Assembly: GCA_965214485.1 (NCBI GenBank)
Contig: CBDCBW010000015.1
Location: forward strand, 338,000 to 401,999
Direction: 5' to 3'
DNA: 64,000 nucleotides
From: Rhodothermales bacterium
GTDB taxonomy: Bacteria > Bacteroidota > Rhodothermia > Rhodothermales > JANQRZ01
Positions 41,013 to 57,557 of the stretch are shown one piece after another (the first letter of the stretch is position 1; the number at the start of each line of letters is the position of its first letter). The notes under the pieces were generated by a model. That model was not told the origin of the DNA. It saw nothing but the letters and a program-made list of their open reading frames with translations, and did no database searches. The position numbers and the translations under genes were made by a program.

Positions 41013-41039
41013 TAGCGACCCCACACCCCCCAATGCGTA

Positions 41040-42423: not shown

Positions 42424-42553
42424 CCGTATACCAAAGGGCCGCTCACCCACGCGGGGAAAACAGGATGATGGTCGGACGAAGCTGCGGAAGCGGTGGAGTT
42501 CGGACGAGGCAAGACCGTGTAGCCCTTCGTCGGCGTGCAGCGGCGGGTTAGGC
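42424..42553 (-). repeat. attC-like site A1
   Basis: Left box degenerate (GTATACC). Inner arms GGGCCGCTCACCC / GTGCAGCGGCGG. Right box GTTAGGC. Confidence 0.65.
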
Positions 42554-42561
42554 AGCCGTGG

Positions 42562-43179
42562 CTACCCACTCACGCCCTGGAACACTTTCAGCACCTCGCT
42601 CTCCGGCACCTGGTTGCTCCGTGGCAACAGGTCTTTGCCCGCGAGCGCCGCTGCCACGCGCGCTACCGACGCCCCATGCTGCCGCCCGCCTTCCAGGGCC
42701 TCGTCCTGGACTCCAACTGGCTCCATGCGCCGCCCGCCCGTCCGCGCGTGAGGCCCCCACCGCGAGCCGGTCGTCTCGCTCCCCGGCGACGACTTCGGAA
42801 ACGGAACCAAAATCATCCCGCACTCCGCCAGTGGGCCGAGCATGGCGAGTTGAGTCAGCTCGCTCCCGCTCCCAGCGTCGCCGTACCCGCCCCCGGTCGT
42901 GAACGCAGCTGCGACCTTCCCGACAAGCTCGTCCGTGAGCCAGAGGTGGTACACGGCGGCGTCGATGAACCGCTTGACGCGCCAATCGAGCATCCCCATG
43001 TGGACCGGCGAACCGAGGATGAGGGCGTCGCAAGCACGTACCTCTTTCTCTGTCGCCTCCTCGACGCCCCGCATTACGACCTCAGTACCGGAGACGGAAC
43101 CCGCGCCCTCACCGACGGCTTCGGCCAGCTTCTTCGTGTTCTCGAAGAGGGTGGTGTAGACGATCAGGACGTTTGCCAT
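42562..43179 (-). CDS. Flavodoxin-fold NAD(P)H-dependent oxidoreductase (WrbA-like); cassette 12
   Basis: 205 aa. MANVLIVYTTLFENTKKLAEAV...LILGSPVHMGMLDWRVKRFID is typical of the flavodoxin-like fold. Stop lies 8 nt from A1. Confidence 0.7.
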   Translation of the reverse strand: MANVLIVYTTLFENTKKLAEAVGEGAGSVSGTEVVMRGVEEATEKEVRACDALILGSPVHMGMLDWRVKRFIDAAVYHLWLTDELVGKVAAAFTTGGGYGDAGSGSELTQLAMLGPLAECGMILVPFPKSSPGSETTGSRWGPHARTGGRRMEPVGVQDEALEGGRQHGASVARVAAALAGKDLLPRSNQVPESEVLKVFQGVSG

Positions 43180-43235
43180 GTCGGTAGGGCCTCGTTTGGT
43201 TATGATACGGTGGAGTTGGCTACGCTGTCACGGGG

Positions 43236-43366
43236 CCGCCTAACAGATTGCCACTCAGCCGCGAAGGGCTGACGGCACGGTGGTAGAACGGAGCGAAAGT
43301 AGCGCCGACGCTCAGGCGAGCCGAGAACGCTGACGCCCTTCGTCGGCTTGCGGCGGCGGGTTATGC
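43236..43366 (-). repeat. attC-like site A2
   Basis: Plus-strand boxes GCCTAAC ... GTTATGC. Arms TGCCACTCAGCC / TGCGGCGGCGG. Confidence 0.75.
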
Positions 43367-43684
43367 CGCAACGATATACGAGCGGCCCGGACGTACCGAC
43401 GGCAAGAGCGCGTTCAACTTCGGTAGTAGCGGTTCGAGGTCTGCCAGGTCTGAACTCGGCGCTCGGACGACGATTACCGCGAGGTCGAGTGCTGCCACGT
43501 TCTGTTGGTACTGCAAGTTGGAGTCGAGCGTCACGAAGACGTCGAACTCTGCCGCTGCGGCTCGAAGCAACTCCCCGTTCTTCTTCCCGCTCCATCCTCG
43601 GTACTTCACCGTCACGACGTCGTGGGCTGCGTCGAAGCCTCGCCGGAGCCGCCAGTCGAGGTTCTCATCCAGGAGCACCCGCAT
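43361..43684 (-). CDS. DUF5615-type PIN-like toxin; cassette 11
   Basis: 107 aa (MRVLLDENLDWRLRRGF...). Paralog of 44856..45176. Its TAA stop lies inside the GCATAAC box of A2. Confidence 0.7.
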   Translation of the reverse strand: MRVLLDENLDWRLRRGFDAAHDVVTVKYRGWSGKKNGELLRAAAAEFDVFVTLDSNLQYQQNVAALDLAVIVVRAPSSDLADLEPLLPKLNALLPSVRPGRSYIVAA

Positions 43685-43702
43685 CAGGCAGGAGCACTCG
43701 CA

Positions 43703-43915
43703 TCAGGTGGTCGCGAGGACGGCGTCCTTCGCCAACGCCAGAAATGCAACCGCCTGCTCACGGCTGACGCTGGGAAACCCTTCTAAGAAGTAATCGAGCG
43801 GTCGGCCTGCCGCGAGATAGTCGAGGAGGTTCTGAACGGGGACGCGCGTGCCTTGAAAGACAGGCGTGCCTCCCAAGATGTCGGGGTCGGAATGGTAAAC
43901 TTGGTGCCTTTCCAT
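43703..43915 (-). CDS. DUF433-type antitoxin; cassette 11
   Basis: 70 aa from ATG 43915 (MERHQVYHSDPDILGGTPVFQGTRVPVQNLLDYL). The ILGG.PVF.GTRVP motif is typical of DUF433. Confidence 0.75.
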   Translation of the reverse strand: MERHQVYHSDPDILGGTPVFQGTRVPVQNLLDYLAAGRPLDYFLEGFPSVSREQAVAFLALAKDAVLATT

Positions 43916-44002
43916 CGGGTCTACGTGGCTGGCGGGTCTACGTGGCTGTTCGGAGAATCGAACGCCTTCTGCCACCTTTCCGATCCAGCACCGGCGCAGT
44001 TG

Positions 44003-44122
44003 CGGCATAACAGGGGGCCGCTCAGCCGCACAGCGCGGCGATTGAACGAGACAAAGTAGGTGGCAAGGTTCGGACGAGGCAAGACGGCGGAGCGCCGTGT
44101 CGGCCTGCAGCGGCGGTTATAC
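44003..44122 (-). repeat. attC-like site A3
   Basis: Boxes GCATAAC ... GTTATAC. Arms GGCCGCTCAGCC / CTGCAGCGGCG. Confidence 0.75.
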
Positions 44123-44130
44123 AGCCGGGG

Positions 44131-44724
44131 CTACATGCCGTCCTGATCCAGCCGGTACGCGAACACCCCGTTCATCTCACAGATGAAGGCGACGTACCGC
44201 TCGTCCGGCGAGAGCGTCAGGCTGTGACAGTTCTCAAACCCGCTCGTCCAGAGCGTCTCCGGTTCCGCGCCGGTCCGAGTTATCACGAACGCGGTGCTCA
44301 TGCCCTCCTGGTGTAGCTCGACGGAGGTACCCCCTTTGGTACGCATGGAGCGAGGGGCAAAGTTCGCGGCCTCCTGCCAGGCAGTGGCTTCGGGTGCTTC
44401 CGCGACAGACTCGCCCGACTGGAGGGCACCGAGCGGAAGATCACCCCGCCATGTCGCCCCGACAAGGGCAAGAGAGTCGAGGCGAACCGAATACCAAATC
44501 CCGGCTACGTTCGCAGCGAGCCGTGAGCCGTCTGGCGACCAGACCGGGAACTCGTCCACAGCTTGGGAGGGGACAATCAGCGCGGTGCTCGCTCCGAGGC
44601 GGGTGAGTTCAGCATCGAGGGATTGAAGAGTGTAGGAGGTGTCAGGCGGTGCATCAGCCTCCTTCTCTTGCGCAAAGGATGGGCTGGCAGCCAAGAGCAG
44701 TAGAGGGAGAACGAGTCTGTACAT
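44131..44724 (-). CDS. Secreted protein with PD40-like motifs; cassette 10
   Basis: 197 aa from ATG 44724 (MYRLVLPLLLLAASPSFAQ signal peptide). Motifs WSPDGSRLAA and LSPDERYVAF. The longer track ORF start would lie inside attC A4. Confidence 0.6.
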   Translation of the reverse strand: MYRLVLPLLLLAASPSFAQEKEADAPPDTSYTLQSLDAELTRLGASTALIVPSQAVDEFPVWSPDGSRLAANVAGIWYSVRLDSLALVGATWRGDLPLGALQSGESVAEAPEATAWQEAANFAPRSMRTKGGTSVELHQEGMSTAFVITRTGAEPETLWTSGFENCHSLTLSPDERYVAFICEMNGVFAYRLDQDGM

Positions 44725-44730
44725 TGGGAG

Positions 44731-44861
44731 GCTGTATAGCAGAGGGCTGCTCATCCGCCTAGGGCAAGCAGCACGAGGGTGGAACGAGGCAGTGTAAGCG
44801 GCGCAGGTTGCACGAGGCAAGACCGTGCAGCCCTTCGTCCGCCTGCAGCGGCGGGTTATAA
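44731..44861 (-). repeat. attC-like site A4
   Basis: Left box degenerate (GTATAGC), right box GTTATAA. Arms GGGCTGCTCATCC / CTGCAGCGGCGG. Confidence 0.65.
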
Positions 44862-45176
44862 TGCCACGCGGATTACGCGCCCCGGAGCCGCCTCCTGCAA
44901 CGCTGCGTTGATCGACGCCACCAACGGGAGCAGGTCATCGATGTCGTTGCTCACGGCCGAGAGCACGATCAGACACAGCTCGATCCCCGTCAGGTTCTGC
45001 TGATACTCGATCCCCCGGTCTATCGTCAGCAGCACGTCGAACTCCAAGGCCGCCAGCCGGAGCAGTGGGCCGTTCTTGATGCCGCCCCACCCACGCTCGG
45101 GCACCGTCAGCGCCTCCGCCTCCAGCGAGCACTTCAGCTTGCGCGGCAGGTTCTCGTCGAGCAGGACCCGGATCAC
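44856..45176 (-). CDS. DUF5615-type PIN-like toxin; cassette 9
   Basis: 106 aa. GTG start overlaps the antitoxin stop (GTGA). Sequence IRVLLDENLPRKLK. Its TAA stop lies inside the TTATAAC box of A4. Confidence 0.7.
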   Translation of the reverse strand: MIRVLLDENLPRKLKCSLEAEALTVPERGWGGIKNGPLLRLAALEFDVLLTIDRGIEYQQNLTGIELCLIVLSAVSNDIDDLLPLVASINAALQEAAPGRVIRVAL

Positions 45177-45385
45177 GCCTCAGCCACCAACTCCTGCTCA
45201 GCCAACTCGAGCAAGGCTTCGGCCTGCTCCCGGCTGACCGTGGGGAAATCGTCACGGAAGTCCTCGATCCGCTTCCCCTTGCGGAGGTAGACGAGCAGCG
45301 TGTCAATAGGCACGCGGGTGCCGGTGAAGACCGGCGTGCCGCCGAGGATTTCGGGATCGGAGTGGTAAACGTCAGTGCGCTTCAT
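45173..45385 (-). CDS. DUF433-type antitoxin; cassette 9
   Basis: 70 aa (MKRTDVYHSDPEILGGTPVFTGTRVPIDTLLVYL). Confidence 0.75.
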   Translation of the reverse strand: MKRTDVYHSDPEILGGTPVFTGTRVPIDTLLVYLRKGKRIEDFRDDFPTVSREQAEALLELAEQELVAEA

Positions 45386-45465
45386 CGCTTCGGCTCATAT
45401 CGTTTCAGGTTGCTCGCCTGACTTCAAACGCCCCTGCTCCCGTTCGGATTCAGCGCGTCGGGAGT

Positions 45466-45598
45466 GGCCGTATAACAGATGGCCGCTCACCCGCGCAGGG
45501 CAAGCAGCACGATGGTCGGACGAAGCTACGGAAACGCAGACGTTCGGACGAGCCGAAAACGCTCGCGCCCTGCGTCGGCGTGCAGCGGCGGGTTATGT
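45466..45598 (-). repeat. attC-like site A5
   Basis: Boxes GTATAAC ... GTTATGT. Arms GGCCGCTCACCC / GTGCAGCGGCGG. The IS481-like element is inserted about 17 nt beyond its right box. Confidence 0.8.
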
Positions 45599-45680
45599 GC
45601 ACGGGCGGTACAGACCGGGCTGATGGTTTACACAATAGTCCAGGCACATGGTTTACACGGACACCCTTCCGTGAGTTGCC

Positions 45681-46878
45681 ATGCCCTTCCAGACTACCGA
45701 CCCGCCTATGGAGCGCGCCCGCCTCGTCGCCGCTCACCTCGACGGCCTCTACTCTGTCGCCGAACTCGCCGACCGCTTCTCGGTCTCCCGGCCCACCGTT
45801 TCTCGGTCTCCCGGCCCACCGTTTCTCGGTCTCCCGGCCCACCGTCTACAAGTGGATCGAGCGATACGCTGAGGGTGGCACCGAGGCGCTCCTCGACCGT
45901 AGCCGAGCCCGACATACCCAGCACGCTAAGACCGACCCGGAGGCGGAGCGCCTGCTCATTGAGGCCCGGCGGGCGCACCCCACCTGGGGCGCACGCAAGC
46001 TGCTGCCCTACCTCGCCCGGCGGCACGAGGGCGTCCGCTGGCCTGCGCCGTCTACGGCAGCGGCCATCCTCCAGCGCCACGGGCTGACGAAGACGCGCCG
46101 CAAGCGCCGGGTGCCGAAGCACCCCGGCTCCGCCCCGCTGGTGACGACGGCCCCCAACGAGGTCTGGACGGCCGACTTCAAAGGCCAGTTCAAGACCCGC
46201 GACGGGGTGTACTGCTACCCGCTGACGGTCTGCGACGCCCACTCGCGCTTTGTGCTCGGCTGCACCGGCCTGCCATCGGTCAAGCAGAAGGGCGCGAAGG
46301 ATCAGTTCGAGCGCCTGTTCCAGAAGTACGGCCTGCCCGAGGCGATCCGTAGCGACAACGGCGTACCGTTCGCCACGCAGGCGCTCTGCGGCCTGAGTCG
46401 GCTGAACGTGTGGGGGCTCAAGCTCGGAATCGGGCACGACCGGATCGCACCAGGGCAGCCTCAACAGAACGGACGCCACGAGCGGATGCACAAGACCCTG
46501 AAGGCCGAGACGGCACGACCACCCGAGCGTGAGATGGCACGGCAGCAGGTGCGCTTCGACGGCTGGCGCACGGAGTTCAACGACGAGCGCCCGCACGAGG
46601 CCCTCAGCTATGAGACTCCCGCTTCACTCTACGTGGCCTCGCCCCGCGCAATGCCCGACGTGCTCCCGAAGCCGGAGTACCCCGGCCACTTCGAGGTGCG
46701 CTGGCTCTCGAAGAGCGGCAACATCAAGTGGAAGCGGCAGCAGCTCTTCGTCAGTCAGGCGCTGGCGCACGAGTGGGTCGGGCTCGAGGAAGTCGCCGAC
46801 GGGGTGTGGAGCTTGTACTTCTACGACCGGCTGTTGGCGCGGCTTGACGAGCGCTCGGGGCTAAGGCTTCGGCCGTGA
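45681..46878 (+). pseudogene. IS481-family transposase (HTH + rve integrase core), frameshifted by a 23-bp tandem triplication
   Basis: MPFQTTDPPMERARLVAAHLDGLYSVAELADRFSVSRPTV (frame of 45681) continues as YKWIERYAEGGTEALLDRSR... only in the +1 frame after 45844. The core contains WTADF...D...RSDNGVPF...E. Confidence 0.8.
45776..45844 (+). repeat. Perfect 23-bp tandem repeat x3 (TTCTCGGTCTCCCGGCCCACCGT) inside the transposase gene
   Basis: Read directly at 45776-45798, 45799-45821 and 45822-45844. Two extra units add 46 bp, which shifts the frame by +1. Confidence 0.95.
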
Positions 46879-46935
46879 GGGGTGTAAACGATGTGGTCAG
46901 ACAAAACTGTAAAGGAACTGACCGGCTCCTACAGG

Positions 46936-47769
46936 TCAGACTTCGTACAGATCGTGGAGGAGTTGTATGGTGTCCCGTGCGAACTCTCGGGCCTCAGACT
47001 TCGATACAGTTCGGTTCCCGTGTACGATGCGGCTCAGGTCAGCGTAGAGATCGCTGATCGGCCCCCGGAATTTCTTGAAGTGATTGCTCCTGTCCAACAG
47101 CGCCCGGAGGTCGGCAGGTTGCATCTGATAATCCTCAGGAATGCGGAAACTCCGGTTCTGCTCTCGCGCTTTTCGCTCGTAGTACGACTTGGTGATGCCG
47201 TAATTCTGGTGCTCAGGGTCGAAGAAGCCTTCGAGTTGACACAGGTGGCGCAGCGCAATCTCAATCACCGTTCGGCAAAGGACGCAAACGGCGAGGTACT
47301 GCTCGAAGGCGTAGCACTGCCGCATCTCCTGCAAGAAGGAGCCGAACTCGGTGGGGGTGTCGTCAGCGCGAGCTACAAGCGCGCCCACTTCCAACATGCC
47401 GGAGACGTATTCGTAGTGGCTGTACCACGGGAAGAAGTGCTCCTCCGCAAGCTCGTCCAACTCGTCGAAGGTGTGCTCGTCATCGAAGAGGTCTGAGAGT
47501 GGAGTGTCCGAGACTACCTCTTCCAGAGGGAGCTTCTTGCCGAGCACGATCCTCTGGACGGTCGCTCGCACATCCCGCGACGCATCATCGGGCAGGAGCG
47601 CAGCCGGTGAATCGAGGAAGTGCTGTTTGATCGAGCGCTTGATCTGACCGTGCTCCTCGACCAGCGCACCGAGCGGCTTGAAGTCCTTCTTGTCGAACGC
47701 CAGAGACAGTGCGTCCGGGAACTCCTGCTCAATCTGCCGGAGGCGTTCGATCTGCTCAGCGAAGTCCAT
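46936..47769 (-). CDS. Hypothetical protein with a DUF4145/HEPN-like C-terminal region; cassette 8
   Basis: 277 aa. The helical C-terminus (CRTVIEIALRHLC ... LYADLSRIVHGNRTVSKSEAREF) is reminiscent of DUF4145/Abi-type HEPN. This is a recall-level assignment only. Confidence 0.5.
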   Translation of the reverse strand: MDFAEQIERLRQIEQEFPDALSLAFDKKDFKPLGALVEEHGQIKRSIKQHFLDSPAALLPDDASRDVRATVQRIVLGKKLPLEEVVSDTPLSDLFDDEHTFDELDELAEEHFFPWYSHYEYVSGMLEVGALVARADDTPTEFGSFLQEMRQCYAFEQYLAVCVLCRTVIEIALRHLCQLEGFFDPEHQNYGITKSYYERKAREQNRSFRIPEDYQMQPADLRALLDRSNHFKKFRGPISDLYADLSRIVHGNRTVSKSEAREFARDTIQLLHDLYEV

Positions 47770-47791
47770 CAGTGGGCACGGTGGGAAGGAA

Positions 47792-47914
47792 GCATAACAG
47801 GTTGCGCTTCAGCCGCGCCGGAACGCGACCGTGGAGTGGAAAGCTACGATGAGTGCTAGCACACCGACGGCAAAACCGCACAGCCCGGCGTCGGTCTGCA
47901 AGCGCGGGTTATAC
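47792..47914 (-). repeat. attC-like site A6 (divergent arms)
   Basis: Boxes GCATAAC ... GTTATAC. Arms GTTGCGCTTCAGCC / GGTCTGCAAGCGCGG still pair, so the structure is conserved rather than the sequence. Confidence 0.7.
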
Positions 47915-48472
47915 CGCCGGGCTTGGCAGTTTTTGTATAGCAAGACCTCGTCCTGATACCCAATCAACGTATTCCCCCCATCCCCCCACTTGAAATACAA
48001 CCTCCACTTGGTCCATTCTCGATAGGTAATTAAGCACGTTCCGATGTTCCGGCTTGTCAGCGAAGCGGATAGACATCCTCGTCACGGACCAAGGAATTCG
48101 AGAGGAATCCTGGTGGTAGATAGCAGATAGCTTCACCTCACCAGCAAAGGTGCTGATGTCATCAACAACCATCTTCGCGGCGGTAACAGGATTAGAAAGG
48201 TCGCAATTATCGCCTGTCAGCGGGTAATCATTCGCCCGAATTGAAGTCATACTGGAATGCCTCTCAGATATGTCGAGTAGTTCTTGCAGCAGTTCAGGAG
48301 CAGGTCGAAAATCATTGCCAGTGGAGATCGTCAAGGCAACCAACCGATCCTTCTCCCTTTGTTGAATGTCCTTCAGTCGTTTGGTTTCGGAGCGCGCCTT
48401 CCGAGTCGCTAACGCTTGCAGATAAAAGGCTAACGCTATACTGGCAACTAAAATAGTTAGGAAAAAGAGCAT
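47909..48472 (-). CDS. Membrane-anchored orphan protein; cassette 7
   Basis: 187 aa. N-terminal TM helix MLFFLTILVASIALAFYLQAL. Lower-GC sequence. Its TAA stop lies inside the GTATAAC box of A6. Confidence 0.6.
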   Translation of the reverse strand: MLFFLTILVASIALAFYLQALATRKARSETKRLKDIQQREKDRLVALTISTGNDFRPAPELLQELLDISERHSSMTSIRANDYPLTGDNCDLSNPVTAAKMVVDDISTFAGEVKLSAIYHQDSSRIPWSVTRMSIRFADKPEHRNVLNYLSRMDQVEVVFQVGGWGEYVDWVSGRGLAIQKLPSPAV

Positions 48473-48487
48473 AGATCAGGACGCGAG

Positions 48488-48619
48488 GCGGTATAACAGA
48501 CGGCCGCTCACCCACGCAGGGCAAGCAGCACAATGGTTGGACGGGGCAACGTAGACACCGATGCTCGGACGAGCCCAGAACGCTTGCGCCCTGCGTCGGC
48601 GTGCAGCGGCGGGTTATAC
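48488..48619 (-). repeat. attC-like site A7
   Basis: Boxes GTATAAC ... GTTATAC. Arms GGCCGCTCACCC / GTGCAGCGGCGG. A second stem is CGCAGGGCAAGC / GCTTGCGCCCTGCG. Confidence 0.8.
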
Positions 48620-48674
48620 AGAATCATTCTTGGTACCTCTGTTCAGGCTAAATAATATTTGATATTTAAGGCTT

Positions 48675-49727: not shown

Positions 49728-49756
49728 CTCTTTAGATTGATTGCGCGATGGAAAGG

Positions 49757-49882
49757 CTTGACAACGTCAAGCGGGGAGCGCTACGTTAACGGCAATTTAT
49801 GCGCTCGCGCCAAAGGGTAGGGCATCTACCTTCGGGCCGAGCGCGCTGAACCATACTACGACAACGCCTTGACTAAGTCAAG
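49757..49882. promoter_or_regulatory. Divergent R-M control region with two copies of the palindrome CTTGAC-n3-GTCAAG
   Basis: CTTGACAACGTCAAG at 49757-49771 and CTTGACTAAGTCAAG at 49868-49882. The second copy overlaps the putative TTG start of the HTH gene. Confidence 0.6.
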
Positions 49883-50111
49883 CAGTTTTTCGCCAGAGGA
49901 CTTCAAGCCGGACGATTGGGTTTCGCAATCGGAGGCAGCGGACATCCGCGGCGTCTCTCGACAGGCGATCCACCAACTCGTGCAGAAGGGCCGGTTCCGC
50001 ACCTACGCTGTGGCCGGACGGACGCTCGTGCTACGGGAGGATGTGGTACAGTACGAACCGGACAAGGGAGGGCGTCCGCCCACCTCGGACGAGACCGAAC
50101 AAGGGGCATAG
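49869..50111 (+). CDS. Small HTH DNA-binding protein (excisionase/MerR-like HTH; candidate controller of the R-M unit); cassette 6
   Basis: 80 aa. WVSQSEAADIRGVSRQAIHQLVQKGRF reads as an HTH. The only in-frame start is TTG at 49869. Confidence 0.55.
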   Translation: MTKSSSFSPEDFKPDDWVSQSEAADIRGVSRQAIHQLVQKGRFRTYAVAGRTLVLREDVVQYEPDKGGRPPTSDETEQGA

Positions 50112-50112
50112 C

Positions 50113-51567
50113 GTGGCATCTGCAAAGAAGGAGAGCCAAATCCCCGTCGGCACGGGCTTCAGCCCCGATCTCGTGAGCCTGCCAGACTACGTTCGCGCCG
50201 CCGTTCGGCACAGCGGGGATTTGGACGCGCTGGAAGAAGCGCTCAACACACCGCCCGTCTGGATCGGCAAGAAGCTGAGGACGACGCGGCGCACCCGCCG
50301 CCACCCGATGGAAGCGGGGGCGCAGTACGGACTGCTCACGCCGGGGAGCTACGAAGCAACCGACCTCACGCGAAAGCTCGCCCGGCTGAGCGAGGACGAT
50401 TTGTACCAAGCGTTTGCGCGGCACATCGTTCTGAACGTCGGTGGTCTCCGTGTCGTGGAGGGAGCGCAGGAGATGCATCTTGACGGGCGGAAGGTCACCG
50501 GCGACTCGCTCGCGCAGTACCTCTCGGATCAGGGCTTCCGGGTCAGCGTCCACAACACCGCGATCAACACGATGCGGATGTGGCTGGCGAAAGCAAAGCT
50601 GTTCCCCGAAAGCGGGCGTGGGGCAGGAGCATGGCGACCGGACCCGGCGGTAAAGGAGCAACTTGTGGGGATGGACGACGATGCTATCGCGGCGCTGGCA
50701 GCATTGACGCCCGAACAGGTCGCGTTTGCTAAAACGCTCGCTCGCCTCGACCCGGACGACTGGACACCGGCGGCAGAGGTACGGGACCTTGCCGAAGCCG
50801 CTGAGGGCGTGCGGATTGGTCGCGGCTCGTTGCCGAACGAAGTGCTCCGTCCATTGGAGGCAGCGGGGCTGATCGAGTACCGAACGGGCGGCACCAGCAG
50901 CGGGAAGACTTCGGAGTTGAGAACGACGGAGGCGTTTCGGGCCGAGGTGCTGGAGCCGTTTCTGGAGCGGACGCTGAAAGACCTCGACCCGGCACTGACG
51001 GCCTACTACCGCACCCGGCCCGCCGACATTTACACTGCTCTCGGCTCGAAGGACAAGCACGAAAAGGGGCAGGCGCTTGAAGCGTTCGCCGTGATGGTGA
51101 TGCGTCTGCTCGGACTCCGGTTCGTCGGCTGGCGGCGGCGGGCCGAGGAAACCGGATACAGCGAAGTGGACGTGCTGATGGCCGGGCTGTTTGGGGCGGT
51201 GCCTACGACGTGGCAGGTGCAGTGCAAAAACACGCCGTCGGGACAGGTCCGCTTGGAGGATGTAGCGAAGGAAGTCGGGCTGATCCCGCTTATGCGGGCA
51301 ACGCACATCCTCGTGCTGGCAAACGCGCCGTTCACCCGCGATGCCCGGCGCTACGCCGACGCGATCATGCAGAACTCGTCGGTTACGGTTTTTCTGCTGG
51401 ACCGGACGGACTTCGAAGCAATTCGGGAGAGTCCCGCTAACCTGGGTCGCATTCTTCAGGCACAGGCCGAGCGCATCCGCGATCTCAAGATGGCAACGCC
51501 GGTATGGCGAGAAGGCGATGCACGCGGGGGACCGGATCAACCCTCGCTCGGTCTACCGCTGGGCTGA
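50113..51567 (+). CDS. Restriction endonuclease-like protein with a C-terminal Mrr-type PD-(D/E)xK domain; cassette 6
   Basis: Likely GTG start at 50113, just after the HTH gene stop. The C-terminus (GYSEVDVLMAG...WQVQCKNTPSGQV) fits the Mrr_cat D...(E/Q)xK pattern. Its stop abuts attC A8. Confidence 0.65.
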   Translation: MASAKKESQIPVGTGFSPDLVSLPDYVRAAVRHSGDLDALEEALNTPPVWIGKKLRTTRRTRRHPMEAGAQYGLLTPGSYEATDLTRKLARLSEDDLYQAFARHIVLNVGGLRVVEGAQEMHLDGRKVTGDSLAQYLSDQGFRVSVHNTAINTMRMWLAKAKLFPESGRGAGAWRPDPAVKEQLVGMDDDAIAALAALTPEQVAFAKTLARLDPDDWTPAAEVRDLAEAAEGVRIGRGSLPNEVLRPLEAAGLIEYRTGGTSSGKTSELRTTEAFRAEVLEPFLERTLKDLDPALTAYYRTRPADIYTALGSKDKHEKGQALEAFAVMVMRLLGLRFVGWRRRAEETGYSEVDVLMAGLFGAVPTTWQVQCKNTPSGQVRLEDVAKEVGLIPLMRATHILVLANAPFTRDARRYADAIMQNSSVTVFLLDRTDFEAIRESPANLGRILQAQAERIRDLKMATPVWREGDARGGPDQPSLGLPLG

Positions 51568-51568
51568 T

Positions 51569-51695
51569 TCTGTATAACAGAGGGCCGCTCACCCGCAGAG
51601 GGCCGCGCGGCGGTGGGACGAGGCAACGTAGACGCCGAGGTTCGGACGAGGCAAGACCGTGCAGCCCTTCGTCGGCGTGCAGCGGCGGGTTAGGC
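51569..51695 (-). repeat. attC-like site A8
   Basis: Boxes GTATAAC ... GTTAGGC. Arms GGGCCGCTCACCC / GTGCAGCGGCGG. Confidence 0.8.
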
Positions 51696-51713
51696 AGAAT
51701 GCGGGCAGTGGAG

Positions 51714-53066
51714 TTAGTTCAGAGTTGCCCTCAGCGAAGGGAAGAAGGCTGAAACCGGATTGTCTACAGAGTCCGGATCGTCAAGAGCTTTCCGGACCTG
51801 GCTGGCGATCTCAGACTTGTACACCTCAAGCCTTGGCACCAGTGCAAAGATGCTCGAGGTATCAATCTGAATCGTCCTCACTTGATTGAGGTCGAACGGA
51901 ATGTGGTCTGCTGCCCGCATGATCTGGACAGTCGGCAGACGACAGGCGTGCCTCAAGGCCAACTCGTAGAATACGTTGGGGTTATGATAAGACAGATCTG
52001 CGATGACTAACTTTGACTTGAGGATGTACTCGATGATCTGGGCCGTGATGATACCAGGCTCCGCGATATAGTCCGCACGCACCAGCTTCAGTCCAAACGG
52101 CTCCAAGGCGGGCTCGATAATAGAGCCCATGAAGAGATCTGAGTGCTGACGCTGCTCCGATTCCTCATCACCTATCGGCGTGATGTAGAAACAAATATGA
52201 TCGAAGTCAGCGCTTGAACTGGCGGGTTTGGCGCGACCTGTCGCAACTACTCCGTCAGGGGCCGGGCGTCCACCCCGGCTTGGGGCACGAACGGCGCGCT
52301 CCAGTCCTTCAAGGGCGTGGTCGAACGTCAAGAGGCGTTCAGCACCTGAAAGAGTTCTGAGAAGGCCCAGATACCGAGCGTTGACGATGAATATGTCAAC
52401 GCACTCGTTCGATCTCTGCTCTGACATACCGGTCTCACGTAACGCGTCGCGCAAAAGAGAACTCGACGGCATTCGTGAGCCTGCAAATGTCTCATAAAGC
52501 AACTTGAACGGCTCGACACCCATTATCCCAAGCTCAATCCGAGCCTTAGTCCGCTCGTGCTCGGACACGTCGTCGCTGGTCGCCTTGTCACCTTCGGGAG
52601 TCAACTGAAGATGCTCCGCTTTATGACTCCCCTTCACAAGACCGTACTTGCTCGCGTTCGTGAGAAGCTGCCGACTCTGACTACTCTCAGGAGACTTGCC
52701 GAACTCATCGAACAAGGTGAGACGACGGACCTGGTTGCTTCCTGCAGTCTCTTGGATGAACTGCGCAAAGCTCACGACCTCCTCAAAGGAGGCATTAGGG
52801 TAGGGTAGCGGCGTTCGCTGTCTGGGCTTCTTTGCGGCAGGCTTCTTCTTATCAGCAGGCTTCTTCTTCCGTGTCGTCTTCTTCCCAGCATTGGCCTTTG
52901 GCTTCCGGCTGGCGGGTTTCTTAGCCGTAGCCTTTTGAGCCGACTCCGCCTTCTTCGCTGGCTCCGCTGCCTCAGTTGACTGTTCGCCCTCCGACATGGG
53001 CTCGGCGTCAGAGGACTTCGACTCTGATTCCCCGAAGAGGTTGGTGCCATTCGCTCCTACTTCCAT
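51714..53066 (-). CDS. Three-part protein: Lys/Pro/Ala-rich basic tail, two winged-helix-like repeats, and a C-terminal nucleoside 2-deoxyribosyltransferase/TIR-like domain; cassette 5
   Basis: 450 aa. Basic tail KKPASRKPKANAGKKTTRKKKPADKKKPAAKKPRQR. C-terminus CFYITPIGDEESEQ...VRADYI...LVIADLSYHNPNVFYELALRHA matches the NDT-like pattern (recall-level). Confidence 0.6.
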   Translation of the reverse strand: MEVGANGTNLFGESESKSSDAEPMSEGEQSTEAAEPAKKAESAQKATAKKPASRKPKANAGKKTTRKKKPADKKKPAAKKPRQRTPLPYPNASFEEVVSFAQFIQETAGSNQVRRLTLFDEFGKSPESSQSRQLLTNASKYGLVKGSHKAEHLQLTPEGDKATSDDVSEHERTKARIELGIMGVEPFKLLYETFAGSRMPSSSLLRDALRETGMSEQRSNECVDIFIVNARYLGLLRTLSGAERLLTFDHALEGLERAVRAPSRGGRPAPDGVVATGRAKPASSSADFDHICFYITPIGDEESEQRQHSDLFMGSIIEPALEPFGLKLVRADYIAEPGIITAQIIEYILKSKLVIADLSYHNPNVFYELALRHACRLPTVQIMRAADHIPFDLNQVRTIQIDTSSIFALVPRLEVYKSEIASQVRKALDDPDSVDNPVSAFFPSLRATLN

Positions 53067-53131
53067 TGGACTAACCGGTCTGTTTCAAGAGCCTGAACAA
53101 GTTCGCGTAGAAGATACTCGGTCGGGGCATT

Positions 53132-53261
53132 CTGCCTAACAGAGGGCCGCTCACCCGCAGAGGGCCGCGACCAGGATGGACTCGAAGATATGACGGCGTG
53201 GGCGCTCGACCGCAGGCAAGACGACCGAGGCCCTATGTCGGCGTGCAGCGGCGGGTTAGCA
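53132..53261 (-). repeat. attC-like site A9
   Basis: Boxes GCCTAAC ... GTTAGCA. Arms GGGCCGCTCACCC / GTGCAGCGGCGG. Confidence 0.8.
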
Positions 53262-53628
53262 CGCAGGCGTTGAGGGCACACCGTTGGAACTGCGAAGCTT
53301 ACCCCCCTCCTACCTACGACGCGGGTCCGCCCGCCTCGGTGAGACTCTGGACACGGCTGCGTAGCGGCGGTGACCGCACTCGCTCTGGATTGGGTGCCCG
53401 GCTGTGGGGGCCGAGCAGACGGAGGAACTGCGACGCCGAGCTCGCACGGCTGGCAGAACCTCCCGCGACGCTGGTAGGCACCCACGAGCACACGCTCACC
53501 CGAGGCCGCCTCTGCCGGGCCGTGGAGGCGAGCACGGGCCACTCGGTCCACAAGAACACCGAGGCTGGCAAGGGCGCGAGTGGTTCCGCCTTGCAAGGAA
53601 ACGGACTCCGCCCCACGACGAGGGCCTG

Positions 53629-53759
53629 CGTGCTAACAGAGGGCCGCTCACCCGCGCAGGGCAAACAGCACAATGGTCGAACGAAGCTACGGAAGCGCAG
53701 GCGTTCGGACGAGCCGAGAACGCTCACGCCCTGCGTCGGCGTGCAGCGGCGGGTTAGCC
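53629..53759 (-). repeat. attC-like site A10
   Basis: Boxes TGCTAAC ... GTTAGCC. Arms GGGCCGCTCACCC / GTGCAGCGGCGG. Confidence 0.8.
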
Positions 53760-54569
53760 GGACCCGTGGGGCACGGCAGTTGGGGACAGCATCTCTTGAA
53801 CCTCCTCAATCGTGTACGGTGGAGACTTCCGGTGGATTACGGCGTGGCAGTTCGGACAGACTGGACGGAGGTCGTCTACCGGATCTACCTCGTACCGCTC
53901 GCCCAACTCTGACACCGGGCGGAGGTGATGGACGTGGATGAAGCCCTCGGTGGCGGCACCGTAGGCACGGGCGAAGTCGAACCCGCAGACGATGCACGCA
54001 ACGCCGTAGTAGGCAAGGCACCGCCGCCGTGCCTCCGGGTTGCGCTCGTACACGTTGAGGCTGACGGCGCGCGGGGTGCCCTCGTACAGCGGGCGCGGCT
54101 CAGCGCTCCGGTTAGAATCCGGCGGGGAGGCCGAGCCGATGACGGAACCCCACTCCCGTTCCAGCGCTTCCGCAACGTGAGGCGGGATCGAGGTACCCGA
54201 CGCCTGGGTGTTCCAGTAGACGTCAGCGAACTCGGGCGCGTCCAGCCGCTCGCGCGGGAGGATCGGATCAGTCTCGGGATCTTGCAGCGCGTCGAACTCC
54301 ACTTCGACGAACCAGCCTGGCGTGTCGCGCTCCGGGTCCCAATGATCGTCTTGGTACGACGGCGTTGTGACGGAGCCGCTGGCGATGATCCCGCGTGGTT
54401 CGAGACCCTGGCGGAGCAAGAAAACGCGGTCGCCCTGCTCGATCCGTTTCGTGTTTCCGCAACTCCAACGACGGACCAATCGCCCGCGCTCGGCAACCTC
54501 GTTTGCGTCGGCGGCGAGGCCGTCCCACTTCCACCGCTTCGGGTTCCACGTCAGGAGATACGTCGCCAT
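53754..54569 (-). CDS. PUA-like (EVE/ASCH-type) domain fused to an HNH nuclease (candidate modification-dependent restriction enzyme); cassette 3
   Basis: 271 aa. N-terminus YLLTWNPKRWKW...GDRVFLLRQG..GIIASG. C-terminal HNH CIVCGFDF...FIHVHHLRPV...CPNCHAVIH. Its TAA stop lies inside the GGCTAAC box of A10. Confidence 0.75.
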   Translation of the reverse strand: MATYLLTWNPKRWKWDGLAADANEVAERGRLVRRWSCGNTKRIEQGDRVFLLRQGLEPRGIIASGSVTTPSYQDDHWDPERDTPGWFVEVEFDALQDPETDPILPRERLDAPEFADVYWNTQASGTSIPPHVAEALEREWGSVIGSASPPDSNRSAEPRPLYEGTPRAVSLNVYERNPEARRRCLAYYGVACIVCGFDFARAYGAATEGFIHVHHLRPVSELGERYEVDPVDDLRPVCPNCHAVIHRKSPPYTIEEVQEMLSPTAVPHGSG

Positions 54570-54590
54570 AGCACAGCGATTCGGAGGGTA

Positions 54591-54720
54591 CGGCTAACAG
54601 TTGACCGCTCAGCCGCGTGGGGCAAACAGCACGGAAGTTGAACGAAGCGAAGGTAGCGCCGACGCCAGAACGAGCCGAGAACGCTCACGCCTCACGTCGG
54701 CCTGCAGCGGTGGGTTATGT
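54591..54720 (-). repeat. attC-like site A11
   Basis: Boxes GGCTAAC ... GTTATGT. Arms GACCGCTCAGCC / CTGCAGCGGTGG. Confidence 0.75.
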
Positions 54721-54745
54721 GGCGTACAGTAGATGTCCACTCATT

Positions 54746-55441
54746 CTAATGTCCGAACCGATACGAACCTAGGTCGATCAGGTCTAACTCCTCGATTCGA
54801 ATCGCCATCGCCTCGTAGGAGACGCCGAAGAGTTCAGCAATTGGCTTCACGGGGTTCCCGGCGAACATTCCAGCCTTTGCCAAGCGAAGAGAGAGTGGCC
54901 GCATATCGGGACTTGTAGCTAGCAGAGGTCCCAAATCTTTAATCCCGAGGGAGAATGCCGAGTCGTTGGATACGATAAACCGATCAGATCCGAAGATCGC
55001 TCGGAATGCCTCTCTCATCACGGACTCGGGCATCAAGAAGTATGCGGCGAACTTGTCGGCTTCATACTCCACTTGTGGGCGGTGGCCCCGAATCAGCGAG
55101 CCATCAAGGCCACGATCTCTGAACTGTTTGTCTGCTTTGTGGAGAATCGCATGACCAAGCTCATGCGCCGCCGTGAAAGCCTGGACCACTGGTACGAACT
55201 GCTCTGATACGGCAGCGTATCGCTTCGGTTTGTCGATGAACCCAGCCACCTCGGTTACGTCGCCACCATCGATGATCTGTCCCAAGAATGGAGCGCGCTC
55301 AAAAGTGTAGCCGAAAGCATGAAATGCGGAGGGCGGATCAAGAACATCGATGACGCCTCTGTCGGTACCGTCTGTCCATATGTCTGACCTATTTCTCCAA
55401 AGGTCGTTCTGGACGTTTTTAGCGATGGAGTGAACGACCAC
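54746..55441 (-). CDS. ImmA/IrrE-family zinc metallopeptidase; cassette 2
   Basis: 231 aa. HEXXH motif AAHELGHAILH followed by EYEADKFAAYFLMP. The GTG start is embedded in the IS200-like end hairpin, so the true N-terminus is uncertain. Confidence 0.75.
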   Translation of the reverse strand: MVVHSIAKNVQNDLWRNRSDIWTDGTDRGVIDVLDPPSAFHAFGYTFERAPFLGQIIDGGDVTEVAGFIDKPKRYAAVSEQFVPVVQAFTAAHELGHAILHKADKQFRDRGLDGSLIRGHRPQVEYEADKFAAYFLMPESVMREAFRAIFGSDRFIVSNDSAFSLGIKDLGPLLATSPDMRPLSLRLAKAGMFAGNPVKPIAELFGVSYEAMAIRIEELDLIDLGSYRFGH

Positions 55442-56020
55442 CCCCAGAGGGGGTGGCTTCTGTATTCCTCACGGCGACCCCTGAAAGGGGATCGCGCGCT
55501 CACGAGAACAGATCGTAGTTGGCCTGCTGCCGCTCCTGTTTCTTCTCCTCCTGCTCCTGATACTGAACGTAGCGCCGGATCAGATCCTCGTTCAAACCCA
55601 CCGTGTTCACAAAGTACCCTCGCGACCAGAAATGATTGCCCCAATACGGCTTCTTCCGCAGACGGGGGTAGCTCTTGAACAGCTTGATCGCCAGCTTCCC
55701 CTTCAGAAAGCCCATGAACTGCGAGACCGCCAGCTTCGGTGGGATCGAGCAGAGCAGGTGGATGTGGTCGGGCTGCACGCTTAGCTCCATCACCTCGACC
55801 TGCTTCCACGCACACAGCACCCGGATGTCGTGCTCGACGGCCTCTTTGATAGCCCCTTCGAGCACACGGTAGCGGTACTTCGGCGTCCAGACGATGTGGT
55901 AGTTGCACTGGTAGACCGTGTGCGTGAGCTTTCGATACTTCGCGTTGCGCTCTGCCATGCTGCCAGTTTACGGCATAGCCGAACACACATCACCACCGTC
56001 AAAGACGGTGGGTTGCTACG
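55440..56020 (-). mobile_element. IS200/IS605-family element (tnpA only; ends approximate) inside cassette 2
   Basis: The Y1 transposase gene is flanked by subterminal hairpins: CCACCGTCAAAGACGGTGG at 55994-56012, and GACCCCTGAAAGGGGATC and CCACCCCCAGAGGGGGTGG at 55437-55492. Confidence 0.7.
55500..55958 (-). CDS. tnpA: IS200/IS605-family Y1 transposase TnpA
   Basis: 152 aa. YHIVWTPKYRYRVL, the HUH motif (DHIHLL) and the catalytic-Tyr region WSRGYFVNTVG. Confidence 0.9.
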   Translation of the reverse strand: MAERNAKYRKLTHTVYQCNYHIVWTPKYRYRVLEGAIKEAVEHDIRVLCAWKQVEVMELSVQPDHIHLLCSIPPKLAVSQFMGFLKGKLAIKLFKSYPRLRKKPYWGNHFWSRGYFVNTVGLNEDLIRRYVQYQEQEEKKQERQQANYDLFS

Positions 56021-56769
56021 CTAAACTCAATCTCCGAGTCAGTATACTTCGAGTCGATTAGACTCTTGTCTCGAATGAGGTTGATGTCCAATCCGAAGCC
56101 GTCATTCGAAGCTTGTGCGCCAGACCTCAACTCCAAGACTCTGGTTTGCAGTTCAGTGCCGATGAGGCGAGCGCGTTCCTCCAACTTTTCCGCGCGAGCT
56201 AGCAACTCCACGATCTCGCTCTCCCCGTTGAAGCTCTTGAGGTTGAGGTACACGATCGAAATAGCGCCGGTCGCTCCAGACAGGGCGGAGTCGATAGCCA
56301 CCTCCGAGTCGCCTCGGGCAGCCTTAAACCCAATGTCGAATACGGTGACGGCGTGTTCGGCGAGCGCCAAACAGCTCTCAGCTATTTCAAGAGGAATTTC
56401 ACTGGCAACATGCAACTCATCCAAAGCCTGCTTCCCATACCTCCATCTCTGGGCGGGATCGGTCTCGGCGTTTCTTGCAAGTCGCGCCTTGATGACCTTG
56501 TCAAACTGAACTGAGTCCTCGTCGAACGCTTCCCACAGCTTGGGCTCGATGTCATTGGTGATGGACTCCTCGATACTGTTAAGCTCGGCTACGGCTTCTT
56601 CATGTTCATGGCCGCCACGTCGCTTCGAAAGATCGATGACGGTTTTCGTCAGAGCGCACGAGATCAGGCCGAGCAGCGCGGCTGCGCTACCCGAACCGGG
56701 CTTGTGCCCGCCAGCGCCGAACTTCCTCAGAAGCTCGTCTAGGGGAAGCTTTGCTAGATCGACTGCCAT
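55999..56769 (-). CDS. Cyclodeaminase/cyclohydrolase (FTCD C-terminal) family protein; cassette 2. Its C-terminus may be altered by the IS200 insertion.
   Basis: 256 aa. N-terminus LPLDELLRKFGAGGHKPGSGSAAALLGLISCALTKTVIDLS matches the FTCD_C pattern (PGGGSAAAL). The last 7 codons run into the IS end. Confidence 0.6.
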   Translation of the reverse strand: MAVDLAKLPLDELLRKFGAGGHKPGSGSAAALLGLISCALTKTVIDLSKRRGGHEHEEAVAELNSIEESITNDIEPKLWEAFDEDSVQFDKVIKARLARNAETDPAQRWRYGKQALDELHVASEIPLEIAESCLALAEHAVTVFDIGFKAARGDSEVAIDSALSGATGAISIVYLNLKSFNGESEIVELLARAEKLEERARLIGTELQTRVLELRSGAQASNDGFGLDINLIRDKSLIDSKYTDSEIEFSVATHRL

Positions 56770-56837
56770 GCCTCTCTGATCTGTGAACCTCGGGAGCTAA
56801 CGCACGCATCCGTAGCAGGTTGCCTTGTGCTCCCGCT

Positions 56838-56970
56838 AGCCACATAACAGACGGCCGCTCAACCGCGAAGGGCAAACGGCATGATGGTGAATCAGAGCGC
56901 AGGATACGCCGACGGTCGGACAACGCGAAAACGCTGACGCCCTTCGTCGGCTTGCAGCGGCGGGTTATGT
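56838..56970 (-). repeat. attC-like site A12
   Basis: Boxes ACATAAC ... GTTATGT. Arms GGCCGCTCAACC / TTGCAGCGGCGG. Confidence 0.8.
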
Positions 56971-57540
56971 GCACGGCTTGTAGCGCGCGGTGATTACGAT
57001 CTCCTGATCGAAGCGAAAACGACCGATCCCTCGGCTCCGCATCCTCATCCGCATCTCGGAGGTCAAGGGAATACCGTTTACTTGCTCGAACGTGATCTCG
57101 GACTCCACCGGCTCCATCAGGAAGCCCGCTAGTCCCGACAGCTCCGGCGAATGCACGATGACACTCTTCAACTCGGCTGGGTCCTTCTGAAACGTGAAGT
57201 CGGCCCCTGGCACCTCAGCCTCAGCCTCCGAGGGTTTCAGGCGCACCGCGCGGACCCGTAGCTCGTTCGACTGGTGGCTAGGAAGCTCGTGGCGCTTGAA
57301 CTCGTCGCCGCTCAACATGGGGAGGAGGTCTTCTTCCTCCGCGTTGGCTTCGGGATCGTCCAGCCGCTGCTCTCCTTTCTCGACCGAGGACGCAGGACCG
57401 AAAGCGCCGTGCTTGATCTGCTTGGATTCGCTGACGGCACATACGCCCCGGACGGCTTCCTGACGACGCTCGAACTGAGCGACGACTTCGGCGATGATCT
57501 GGCGGGCGCCGCCGCTCAGCAGGGTGTCAGTTTGGCTCAT
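56965..57540 (-). CDS. Orphan acidic protein; cassette 1 (junction-proximal)
   Basis: 191 aa from ATG 57540 (MSQTDTLLSGG), 10 nt after the terminal GTTATGTGCAC box. Its TAA stop lies inside the ACATAAC box of A12. Confidence 0.6.
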   Translation of the reverse strand: MSQTDTLLSGGARQIIAEVVAQFERRQEAVRGVCAVSESKQIKHGAFGPASSVEKGEQRLDDPEANAEEEDLLPMLSGDEFKRHELPSHQSNELRVRAVRLKPSEAEAEVPGADFTFQKDPAELKSVIVHSPELSGLAGFLMEPVESEITFEQVNGIPLTSEMRMRMRSRGIGRFRFDQEIVITARYKPCT

Positions 57541-57546
57541 AGGTGA

Positions 57547-57557
57547 GTGCACATAAC
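57547..57557 (-). other. Terminal cassette junction (half-site GTGCACATAAC; minus strand GTTATGTGCAC)
   Basis: Perfect 11-bp reverse complement of the right box of A12 (GTTATGTGCAC at 56964). No attC arms follow it, so this is the candidate attI-side junction of the first cassette. Confidence 0.6.

Follow-up and report, generated by a model that had tools for sequence, protein, structure and literature searches.

A probable chromosomal integron cassette array of a Rhodothermales bacterium carries an attI module at its head and no adjacent intI

Herein, we analysed 64,000 nucleotides of DNA from a Rhodothermales bacterium (GenBank assembly GCA_965214485.1, contig CBDCBW010000015.1, positions 338,000 to 401,999 of the forward strand; the whole stretch is called the window and is numbered from its first letter). 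Positions 40714-57696 of the window most probably form a chromosomal integron cassette array of a Rhodothermales-type host, with the insertion site attI at its head and without the integrase gene intI (probability about 0.8). It comprises 13 cassettes and as many attC sites, of which 12 are intact and the terminal one is decayed. An earlier note, made from the letters alone, had described an integron-type array without integrase at 42424-57557 and taken it either for a group of clustered attC sites without an integron integrase (CALIN) or for an integron that had lost intI. This interpretation is supported by the present analysis, and the left limit of the array is moved to 40714, at the stop codon of an ABC-F gene. 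Neither the strand assignment nor the decayed 13th attC, the disrupted 13th cassette and the three insertion sequences (IS) within the array had been reported, and the attI module at the right end had gone unrecognised. Core genes flank the array on both sides. The host DNA has a GC content of ~70%, and the lower GC that had been ascribed to the units was confirmed, being 0.54-0.67 over 43-58 kb vs ~0.69-0.73 in the flanks.

The window contains 12 attC-type imperfect palindromes of 118-130 nt, all on the + strand, and every one was recovered, with box-to-box coordinates, at the position previously given. Their length falls inside the 57-141 nt range of attC sites, and there is indeed one repeat per gene-sized unit. 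The claimed RYYYAAC and GTTRRRY box types are present, with an intact AAC triplet in 10 of the 12 boxes (sites 1 and 4 are the exceptions) and an intact GTT triplet in all 12. The mean column identity among the sites is 79%. The sites, with their scores in the covariance model described below, are as follows.

42426-42553, + (bottom strand): attC site 1, 120.7 bits, AAC mutated to ACC
43238-43366, +: attC site 2, 128 bits
44005-44122, +: attC site 3, 97.7 bits
44734-44861, +: attC site 4, 116.1 bits, AAC mutated to AGC
45470-45598, +: attC site 5, 144.1 bits
47792-47914, +: attC site 6, 89.1 bits, compensatory L-box changes
48491-48619, +: attC site 7, 139.9 bits
51572-51695, +: attC site 8, 118.2 bits
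53134-53261, +: attC site 9, 104.5 bits
53631-53759, +: attC site 10, 144.4 bits
54592-54720, +: attC site 11, 130.9 bits
56842-56970, +: attC site 12, 133.6 bits

The most conserved 22 nt of the repeat, with the 3' consensus GTCGGCNTGCRGCGGYGGGTTA, gave 11 matches with three mismatches or fewer, against 0.02 expected from shuffles, and every match was on the + strand and within the array. A covariance model was then built from the 12 window copies with the structure specified by hand. It retrieved exactly 12 sites in the 64 kb, all on the + strand, at 89-144 bits and with E values of 1e-22 to 5e-38. There was no further significant match; the two best others had E values of ~0.5, one of them being the decayed terminal attC (40713-40766). 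The search with an attC model that had been put forward as a test of the array, run here with our own structure-aware model, thus gave very strong matches confined to the array. No Rfam family covered the repeat sites, the search returning tRNA only.

Each repeat can be drawn as a hairpin in which an R box of 7 bp is separated from an L box of 6 bp by an asymmetric unpaired spacer, followed by a long stem with a variable tip. On the + strand, the 5' arm consists of the RYYYAAC 7-mer, 5 unpaired nt, GCCGCT, CAC, CC and a longer stem up to the variable tip, and the 3' arm returns through a stem with three single-base bulges, AGCGGC, 2 unpaired nt and the GTTRRRY 7-mer. A single unpaired base had been claimed, but there are actually three per site. 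In a plain MAFFT alignment of the 12 window sites, standard pairs occupied 92.9% of the cells vs 31-50% when the 3' partners were slid by 1-3 columns, and changes on both sides were seen at 11 of the 27 pairs. For 150 family members from other genomes, 93.0% of the cells were paired vs 31-47% when slid, with 441 doubly changed cells and changes on both sides at 17/27 pairs, in an alignment that was fitted to the covariance model and hence leans towards the structure. Site 6 keeps its pairing with a different sequence, as previously noticed, through the compensatory changes in its L box.

The three extrahelical bases are all C; counted from the 3' end of the + strand they occupy positions 16, 20 and 23, on the arm that faces the AAC triplet, with 5 paired bases separating the outermost bulges. 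In the canonical attC bottom strand, the extrahelical bases stand at 16, 20 and 23/24 opposite AAC and are usually G and T, 6 paired bases separate the first bulge from the last, and the unpaired spacer measures ~5-6 nt on both arms (PMC5027507). The position and arm of the bulges therefore agree with the canonical register, whereas the base identity and the 5-bp spacing differ, and the spacer is unequal, the AAC arm contributing 5 nt and the opposite arm 2 nt. These departures are matters of detail, as the R and L boxes are still split by an unpaired region.

When both strands of each site were folded, as the earlier note had suggested, the + strand was more stable than its complement in 10 of the 12 sites, by ~1.6 kcal/mol on average; bottom strands are reported to be the more stably folding ones (PMC5027507). 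The cassette ORFs (open reading frames) were confirmed to lie on the - strand, and the TTA of the GTTA box holds five of their stops (43361, 44856, 47909, 53754 and 56965), the same five TAA stops that had been placed inside the TAAC box. Furthermore, in the related loci described below, intI sits on the side predicted by an orientation with the - strand as top. Taken together, the bulge arm, the fold stability, the strand and stops of the ORFs and the side of intI indicate that the - strand is the top (coding) strand. The + strand is the bottom strand, which folds into the recombinogenic hairpin, and the cassettes are read from right to left with the array head at the right.

The box sequences carry a further signal. 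The outer three positions of a site's own two 7-mers pair poorly with each other, whereas the 14 nt that begin at the 3' box of one site and the 14 nt that end at the 5' box of the following one match as complements at 10-14 of 14 positions (7/14 at an IS-bearing unit), compared with 5-10/14 within a single site. One would expect such complementarity between neighbours had every unit, from one crossover point to the other, once formed a circle carrying a complete site. As this pattern is symmetric, the strand had to be taken from the other features.

The right end of the array, its head, is judged by homology to be an attI module, followed by the chromosomal flank.

57551-57696: attI module at the right end (head) of the array, homologous to the spacer between intI and attI in relatives with complete integrons
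57551-57628, -: attI core with crossover box G↓TTATGT (- strand), repeats and palindrome
57580-57587 and 57614-57621: direct GGCATAGC repeats in the attI core, which also holds a GCCGAAC/GTTCGGC palindrome
57665-57696, +: distal part of the attI module, with inverted repeat copies GCTATGCC at 57668-57675 and 57689-57696
57715-59283, -: YihY/BrkB-family membrane protein gene, chromosomal flank (family scan)

The terminal junction reported earlier was found as ACATAAC at 57551-57557, and the ~70 nt past it can be aligned to the stretch that separates intI from the first cassette in two related loci (L039 and L068). A profile of this intI-attI junction region matched window positions 57551-57628 at E 1.4e-21. 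Of the seven GGCATAGC matches that the window contains, four lie inside the 117 nt that hold the repeats of this module, with 1.2 expected for the whole window. The inverted copies lie 45-75 nt beyond the direct repeats, and the first of them sits in CGTGCTATGCCGAC (57665-57678), a motif that contains the intI start codon in L039 (ATG CCG ACT = MPT...). The stop codon of the convergent yihY, a gene correctly placed at 57715 before, follows 19 nt beyond the second inverted copy. The presence of this module indicates that the array belongs to the head end of an integron platform, not to a detached fragment. A terminator scan of the module found none, and one strict and one relaxed pattern of the attI core were both without a match in metagenomes.

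The left end, the tail, comprises the following features.

37507-40713, +: ABC-F ATPase gene, chromosomal flank (clear ABC-F by family scan)
40714-40766, +: decayed, internally deleted 13th attC, GCCTGAC ... GTGCAGCGGCGGGTAAT, abutting the ABC-F stop codon
41046-41097, +: remnant (3' end) of a transposase gene of the IS481 family, 81% identical to window 46802-46853
41155-42401, -: 13th cassette, with a small membrane-protein gene that an IS5-family element interrupts
42252-42401 and 41155-41475, -: halves of the 13th-cassette gene, two fragments of one gene
41469-42251, +: IS5-family transposase (NF033580, 227 bits)

The ABC-F gene ends at 40713, as had been stated, and its stop codon lies within GCCTGAC, the outer box of the decayed attC, the 3' arm of which matches site 5 at 92%. 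The same ABC-F/attC junction recurs with a full-length attC in L035 (on the related chromosome CBDCCX010000006.1), where the ABC-F gene has 81% nucleotide identity, indicating that the array tail is an old, fixed chromosomal junction. The two halves of the 13th-cassette gene share 71-78% protein identity with one continuous ORF in L022, and this counterpart is a cassette flanked by attC on both sides in a complete integron. With attI at the head and a conserved junction at the tail, the array is a whole one, from platform to terminus, rather than an internal piece. Two smaller observations belong to this end. In L035 (~4650-5400, reverse), ~30 nt of the ABC-F 3' end including the stop are duplicated around an insert of ~700 nt, and the second copy leads directly into the full-length attC. 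In the window, GCGATTG(T/C)TTATACCAA and CAAGTCATCCCC are each present as two direct copies at 40800-40920, between the decayed attC and the IS481 remnant.

Whether an integrase is encoded nearby was assessed with the IntIs of relatives as tblastn queries. The best match in the 64 kb had an E value of 0.057, indicating that the window encodes no tyrosine recombinase, so that what had been said of the flanks applies to the whole window. intI was found neither within 6.3 kb on the head side nor within 40 kb on the tail side of the array, and no IntI-like coding sequence follows the start-codon motif CGTGCTATGCCGAC in the window.

The related loci were collected by an exact-pattern scan with one genome per species, which yielded 74 stretches totalling 571 kb (cited by L number), mostly from Rhodothermales, Rubrivirga, Rubricoccaceae, Rhodothermaceae and Salinibacteraceae. 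The complete chromosomes among these relatives have several separate attC places each. The covariance model found 235 sites in the 571 kb, and an independent profile search gave 240 matches in the 74 loci plus the window, co-oriented in 73 of 74 sources. In the relatives, AAC is intact in 188/209 sites and GTT in 203/209. The earlier note had set out a scattering of the repeat through non-cassette contexts as the outcome that would count against it; the repeat was found in co-oriented arrays across the 74 related loci, not as dispersed single copies.

Beside the arrays of L068, L039, L057, L046, L022, L071 and L074 we found full-length IntI homologues, 50-53% identical to IntI1. The tblastn search with IntI1 that detected them gave no match in the window, and three of the resulting proteins were checked independently against NCBIfam. 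These three (from L039, L068 and L022) scored 413-448 bits on TIGR02249, end-to-end and with a cutoff of 265, and they hold the IntI-specific insertion stretch (LPQALAKKYP...GWQYLFPS vs LPDALERKYP...WPWFWVFAQ in IntI1). With the family tied to IntI homologues in relatives, the repeats are, as far as sequence comparison can tell, attC sites. The homologue of an eighth intI-linked locus, L055 (4507-5465; Rubrivirga sp. IMCC45206, complete genome), is frameshifted: tblastn recovered it in two pieces in different frames, so it is probably a pseudogene in this cultured strain. The attC family was also seen in metagenome-assembled genomes (MAGs) labelled Chloroflexales, Acidobacteriota, Trueperaceae, Myxococcales, Longimicrobiales and Saprospiraceae (L010, L024, L034, L056, L043, L023, L060 and L047, the last with 15 model matches in 6.7 kb), which reflects either horizontal spread of cassettes or binning errors.

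The module at the head of the window array is not alone in lacking intI. Five further intI-less attI modules head co-oriented attC arrays on two related chromosomes.

L037 7573-7651: intI-less attI module
L052 3373-3454: intI-less attI module
L003 4598-4673: intI-less attI module
L036 3957-4032: intI-less attI module
L069 6053-6129: intI-less attI module

For L052, L003, L036 and L069, no intI occurred within the 3.3-6 kb available, and for L037 this holds for 350 nt only. CBDCCX010000006.1 has one intI-linked module and three intI-less ones, and OZ244038.1 has one and two, giving, with the window, six intI-less modules and two intI-linked ones (L039 and L068). The crossover AAC and the GGCATAG repeats are invariant in 8/8 attI copies, and the spacer beyond the core is unalignable. 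Four of the six intI-less modules are retained up to the intI start-codon motif and no further, which is not expected from independent random deletions of a 1.07-kb gene. The first cassette differs at every module.

Two exact duplicates on OZ244038.1 bear on how such modules are used. L036 4026-5010 and L068 7012-7996 are identical (100%) over 985 nt, with identity that sets in at the G of a GTT box and stops inside the following one. The L036 copy is the first cassette at an intI-less attI, and the L068 copy is the second cassette of the intI-linked array. The simplest reading is a recent IntI-mediated insertion at an attI without an integrase of its own, and a duplicate with such exact boundaries points to use in trans. 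Similarly, a 729-nt toxin-antitoxin cassette is an exact duplicate between two arrays (L006 5413-6141 and L052 6137-6865).

By analogy, we lean slightly towards the view that an IntI of the L039/L068 type, encoded at another place in the genome, acts on the window array in trans or did so until recently; support for the in-trans step comes from the related chromosome only. More tentatively, and with somewhat less than even odds, the whole may be a distributed integron, in which one attI is intI-linked and a single integrase would load several landing pads in trans. The attI module of such a system would measure ~115-200 bp and extend from the crossover box, through a direct pair of GGCATAGC repeats, as far as one or two copies in inverted orientation, and several would occur per chromosome, each heading its own cassette array. 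The window array would then be a satellite platform, not a broken integron. The modules could also be leftovers of repeated duplication of the integron followed by loss. Integrons typically have one attI, near the integrase, and attI is poorly described outside class 1. No description of multiple attI per integrase was met in the literature searched, the coverage of which was partial and the evidence accordingly weak. The multi-attI organisation is possibly new, and it may already be described in papers outside that literature.

As for the way in which the array would have been assembled, each unit probably entered as a circle through an IntI crossover at G↓TT between its attC and attI. In established integron biology, excision would proceed by attC × attC recombination of folded bottom strands, and insertion by attI × attC recombination at G↓TT (PMC5027507, PMC4889954). 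In terms of classes, the array agrees with the CALIN definition of IntegronFinder (PMC4889954), having 12 intact sites and no intI nearby. Of the marks of a complete integron, it has attI at the head, by homology, and lacks the adjacent intI. The earlier label of a sedentary chromosomal integron holds for the chromosomal position, the conserved locus and the homogeneous attC sites; it fails on size, as the rule asks for >19 attC sites or presence in all genomes of a species (PMC4889954), and the array has 13.

Several points weigh against reading 40714-57696 as an integron array with attI at its head. An integrase is not demonstrated for this genome, of which the window covers 64 kb of a 508,734-bp contig. 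The attC calls come from a covariance model of our own, built from the window copies. The extrahelical bases are C rather than the usual G and T, and the spacer is 5 nt/2 nt rather than 5-6 nt on both arms. No sigma-70-type promoter was found in 57400-57800, in a scan without Bacteroidota-type promoters. Finally, a frozen array would also account for the mutation of AAC at two sites, the decay of the terminal attC and the three IS.

The last point leads to the main rival, a relic in which intI was deleted in place, no other integrase exists in the genome, and the array is immobile and decaying. Losing intI is recognised as one way in which CALINs arise (PMC4889954), and in the window the start-codon motif CGTGCTATGCCGAC persists at 57665-57678 and no IntI-like sequence follows. 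The mutated triplets, the internal deletion of the terminal attC and the IS5, IS481-family and IS200-type insertions also speak for decay. However, the attI core is conserved as in the intI-linked copies while the adjoining spacer has diverged beyond alignment, and the common end point of four of the six intI-less modules is unlike the result of independent random deletions. Moreover, related chromosomes keep one intI together with several modules, with a recent insertion at one of them, and intact AAC triplets are no rarer here than in relatives. The notion that the sites are visibly decaying was dropped, since mutated AAC is no more frequent here (2/12) than there (21/209). We therefore consider a frozen relic unlikely, yet worth keeping in view.

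It is very improbable that the array is a CALIN produced by a rearrangement that split an integron, or by IntI insertions at a non-att site. Both routes are on record for CALINs (PMC4889954 among the sources), IS elements able to mediate rearrangements are present, and relatives have several separate arrays per chromosome, but the array has a complete attI module at the head and a conserved chromosomal junction at the tail. A generic intergenic palindrome unrelated to integrons, of the repetitive extragenic palindrome (REP) or miniature inverted-repeat transposable element (MITE) type, would suit repeats that are intergenic, palindromic, ~125 nt long and numerous in related genomes, but it is refuted by their absence from 49 kb of flanks, their co-orientation in 73/74 sources, the spacing of one per gene-sized unit with box complementarity in trans, the IntI homologues beside arrays in eight loci (the three scanned passing TIGR02249) and the exact duplicates bounded by GTT boxes.

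The lengths of the window cassettes, if crossover is taken to fall between the A and the C of AAC on the + strand, are 709, 2250, 961, 497, 1562, 3081, 699, 2322, 736, 729, 767 and 812 bp, counted from the head. Their contents, besides the 13th cassette given above, are listed from the head.

56965-57540, -: cassette 1 (attI-proximal; cassette 56848-57556), ORF of 191 aa, no family match
54746-56769, -: cassette 2, 2250 bp, three genes by family scan
54746-55441, -: cassette 2, M78/ImmA-like peptidase (family scan)
55500-55958, -: cassette 2, IS200-type Y1 transposase, between the peptidase and the FTCD_C protein
55999-56769, -: cassette 2, FTCD_C-domain protein (family scan)
53754-54569, -: cassette 3, ORF for an EVE-HNH nuclease, weakly resembling type IV methyl-directed restriction enzymes
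53140-53636: cassette 4, 497 bp, a small orphan ORF at most, or none
51714-53066, -: cassette 5, ORF of 450 aa, weak TIR-effector-like stretch (E 3.3e-9), no Pfam match
48675-51567: cassette 6, restriction-modification, two convergent genes
48675-49727, -: cassette 6, type II N6/N4 methyltransferase (family scan)
50041-51567, +: cassette 6, Mrr_cat nuclease (Mrr-type; family scan)
47909-48472, -: cassette 7, ORF of 187 aa, no family match
46936-47769, -: cassette 8, ORF of 277 aa, no family match; the unit also holds an IS481-family element
45608-46934, +: IS481-family insertion sequence (transposase 45580-46878 as listed)
44856-45385, -: cassette 9, toxin-antitoxin, DUF5615-like (44856-45176) and DUF433 (45173-45385)
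44131-44820, -: cassette 10, ORF for a secreted protein, weak PD40 repeat match
43361-44008, -: cassette 11, toxin-antitoxin, DUF5615/PIN-like (43361-43684) and DUF433 (43703-44008)
42562-43179, -: cassette 12 (cassette 42432-43243), flavodoxin/FMN-reductase-like ORF

The family scans bore out the cargo of two toxin-antitoxin pairs, a restriction-modification unit and orphan ORFs that had been described. Cassette 9 has 83% nucleotide identity to L012 over its whole length, and cassettes homologous to cassette 11 occur in many related arrays. The expected cassette-wise modularity was observed both ways, as the homology of units to other genomes stops at the attC boundaries and exact cassette-sized duplicates exist between arrays of one genome.

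Three IS elements, of the IS5-family, IS481-family and IS200-type, are located within the array. The IS481-family element has the domains rve, rve_3, HTH_32 and LZ_Tnp_IS481 and 26-nt inverted repeats, and its left end lies 12 nt after the GGGTTA of attC site 5. In 10 of 11 copies the left end is exactly 12 nt after an attC GGGTTA and in one orientation, with six different 12-mers between attC and element; beyond the window, copies were found in L002, L015, L018, L025, L026, L027, L049, L051 and L073 (and L016). As these loci were collected for containing attC, the share of copies near attC is biased, and the fixed distance is not. No target-site duplication was found at the five copies with both ends available. 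The element may be an attC-targeting IS from a family not known for that. Its fixed distance and orientation to attC, in 10/11 copies, recall the IS1111-attC elements and the group IIC-attC introns; in contrast to the former, its transposase is of the DDE (rve) rather than the DEDD type, and in contrast to both it inserts 12 nt outside attC rather than within the site. Near the 5' end of its transposase ORF, three tandem 23-nt units (GCCCACCGTTTCTCGGTCTCCCG) span 45768-45845.

Elsewhere in the window, an island of 0.58-0.64 GC at a distance of ~24 kb from the array holds two ORFs (16261-17074, -), one small and one of 206 aa, and within this low-GC stretch at 15-17 kb, positions 16342-16703 resemble the cassette-array loci L001 and L070 at 68-71% identity. 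The covariance model, run over the 64 kb, found no attC beside 16261-17074. Two similarly arranged gene triplets stand side by side at 20092-24263 and 24801-28884; the first encodes a subtilase with a type IX secretion system (T9SS) sorting tail, a PD40-repeat protein and an AraC-type regulator, and the T9SS tail fits a Bacteroidota/Rhodothermota host.

Among known systems, the array resembles the Vibrio cholerae superintegron, with its V. cholerae repeats (VCR), in being chromosomal and in having long (~125 nt), homogeneous, species-group-specific attC sites with three extrahelical bottom-strand bases in a 16/20/23-24 register. Likewise, both have co-oriented promoterless cassettes with stops in the R'' box and a cargo of toxin-antitoxin and defence-type genes. 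Unlike the superintegron, the window array has no adjacent intI and 13 sites only, its extrahelical bases are all C, its spacer has 5 nt vs 2 nt, and its host is a high-GC member of the Rhodothermales, relatives of which have several attI-headed arrays per chromosome. Like CALINs, it is without resistance cassettes and carries cargo mostly of unknown function; CALINs are defined without reference to attI, whereas this array has a recognisable attI module at its head, by which the range of its likely origins and functions is reduced. Xanthomonas chromosomal integrons offer another parallel, a chromosomal array at a fixed locus with integrase function lost. In these a degraded intI pseudogene reportedly remains as a rule, whereas the window has no coding remnant of intI past the start-codon motif. 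Within the lineage, a complete integron of Salinibacter ruber M1 was reported as the first in Bacteroidetes (IntegronFinder 2.0, PMC9024848). It shares the order-level lineage (Rhodothermales sensu lato) and has intI, and it is likened to the window array by lineage alone; a Salinibacteraceae MAG does carry the attC family of the window (L020 and L067). The literature searched held no description of Rubrivirga or Rhodothermales integrons beyond that of S. ruber M1, which is weak evidence given its partial coverage. The window array is thus a further example of a known system, in a lineage in which integrons are already known.

Integrons outside Proteobacteria are poorly described, and attI is almost unknown beyond the clinical classes, so that CALINs are usually of unknown origin. 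Here, the origin of a CALIN can be read from its own sequence, through an attI recognised by comparison with relatives, and the array spans the whole platform from the insertion site to the chromosomal terminus, with the integrase alone lacking. This comparison also provides a putative defined attI for a non-proteobacterial integron. The cargo, with its restriction-modification system, EVE-HNH nuclease, TIR-like protein and toxin-antitoxin pairs, adds to the picture of chromosomal integrons as stores of defence genes. Should attI sites without intI really acquire cassettes in trans, then many CALINs, instead of being debris, may serve as functional components of distributed integrons.

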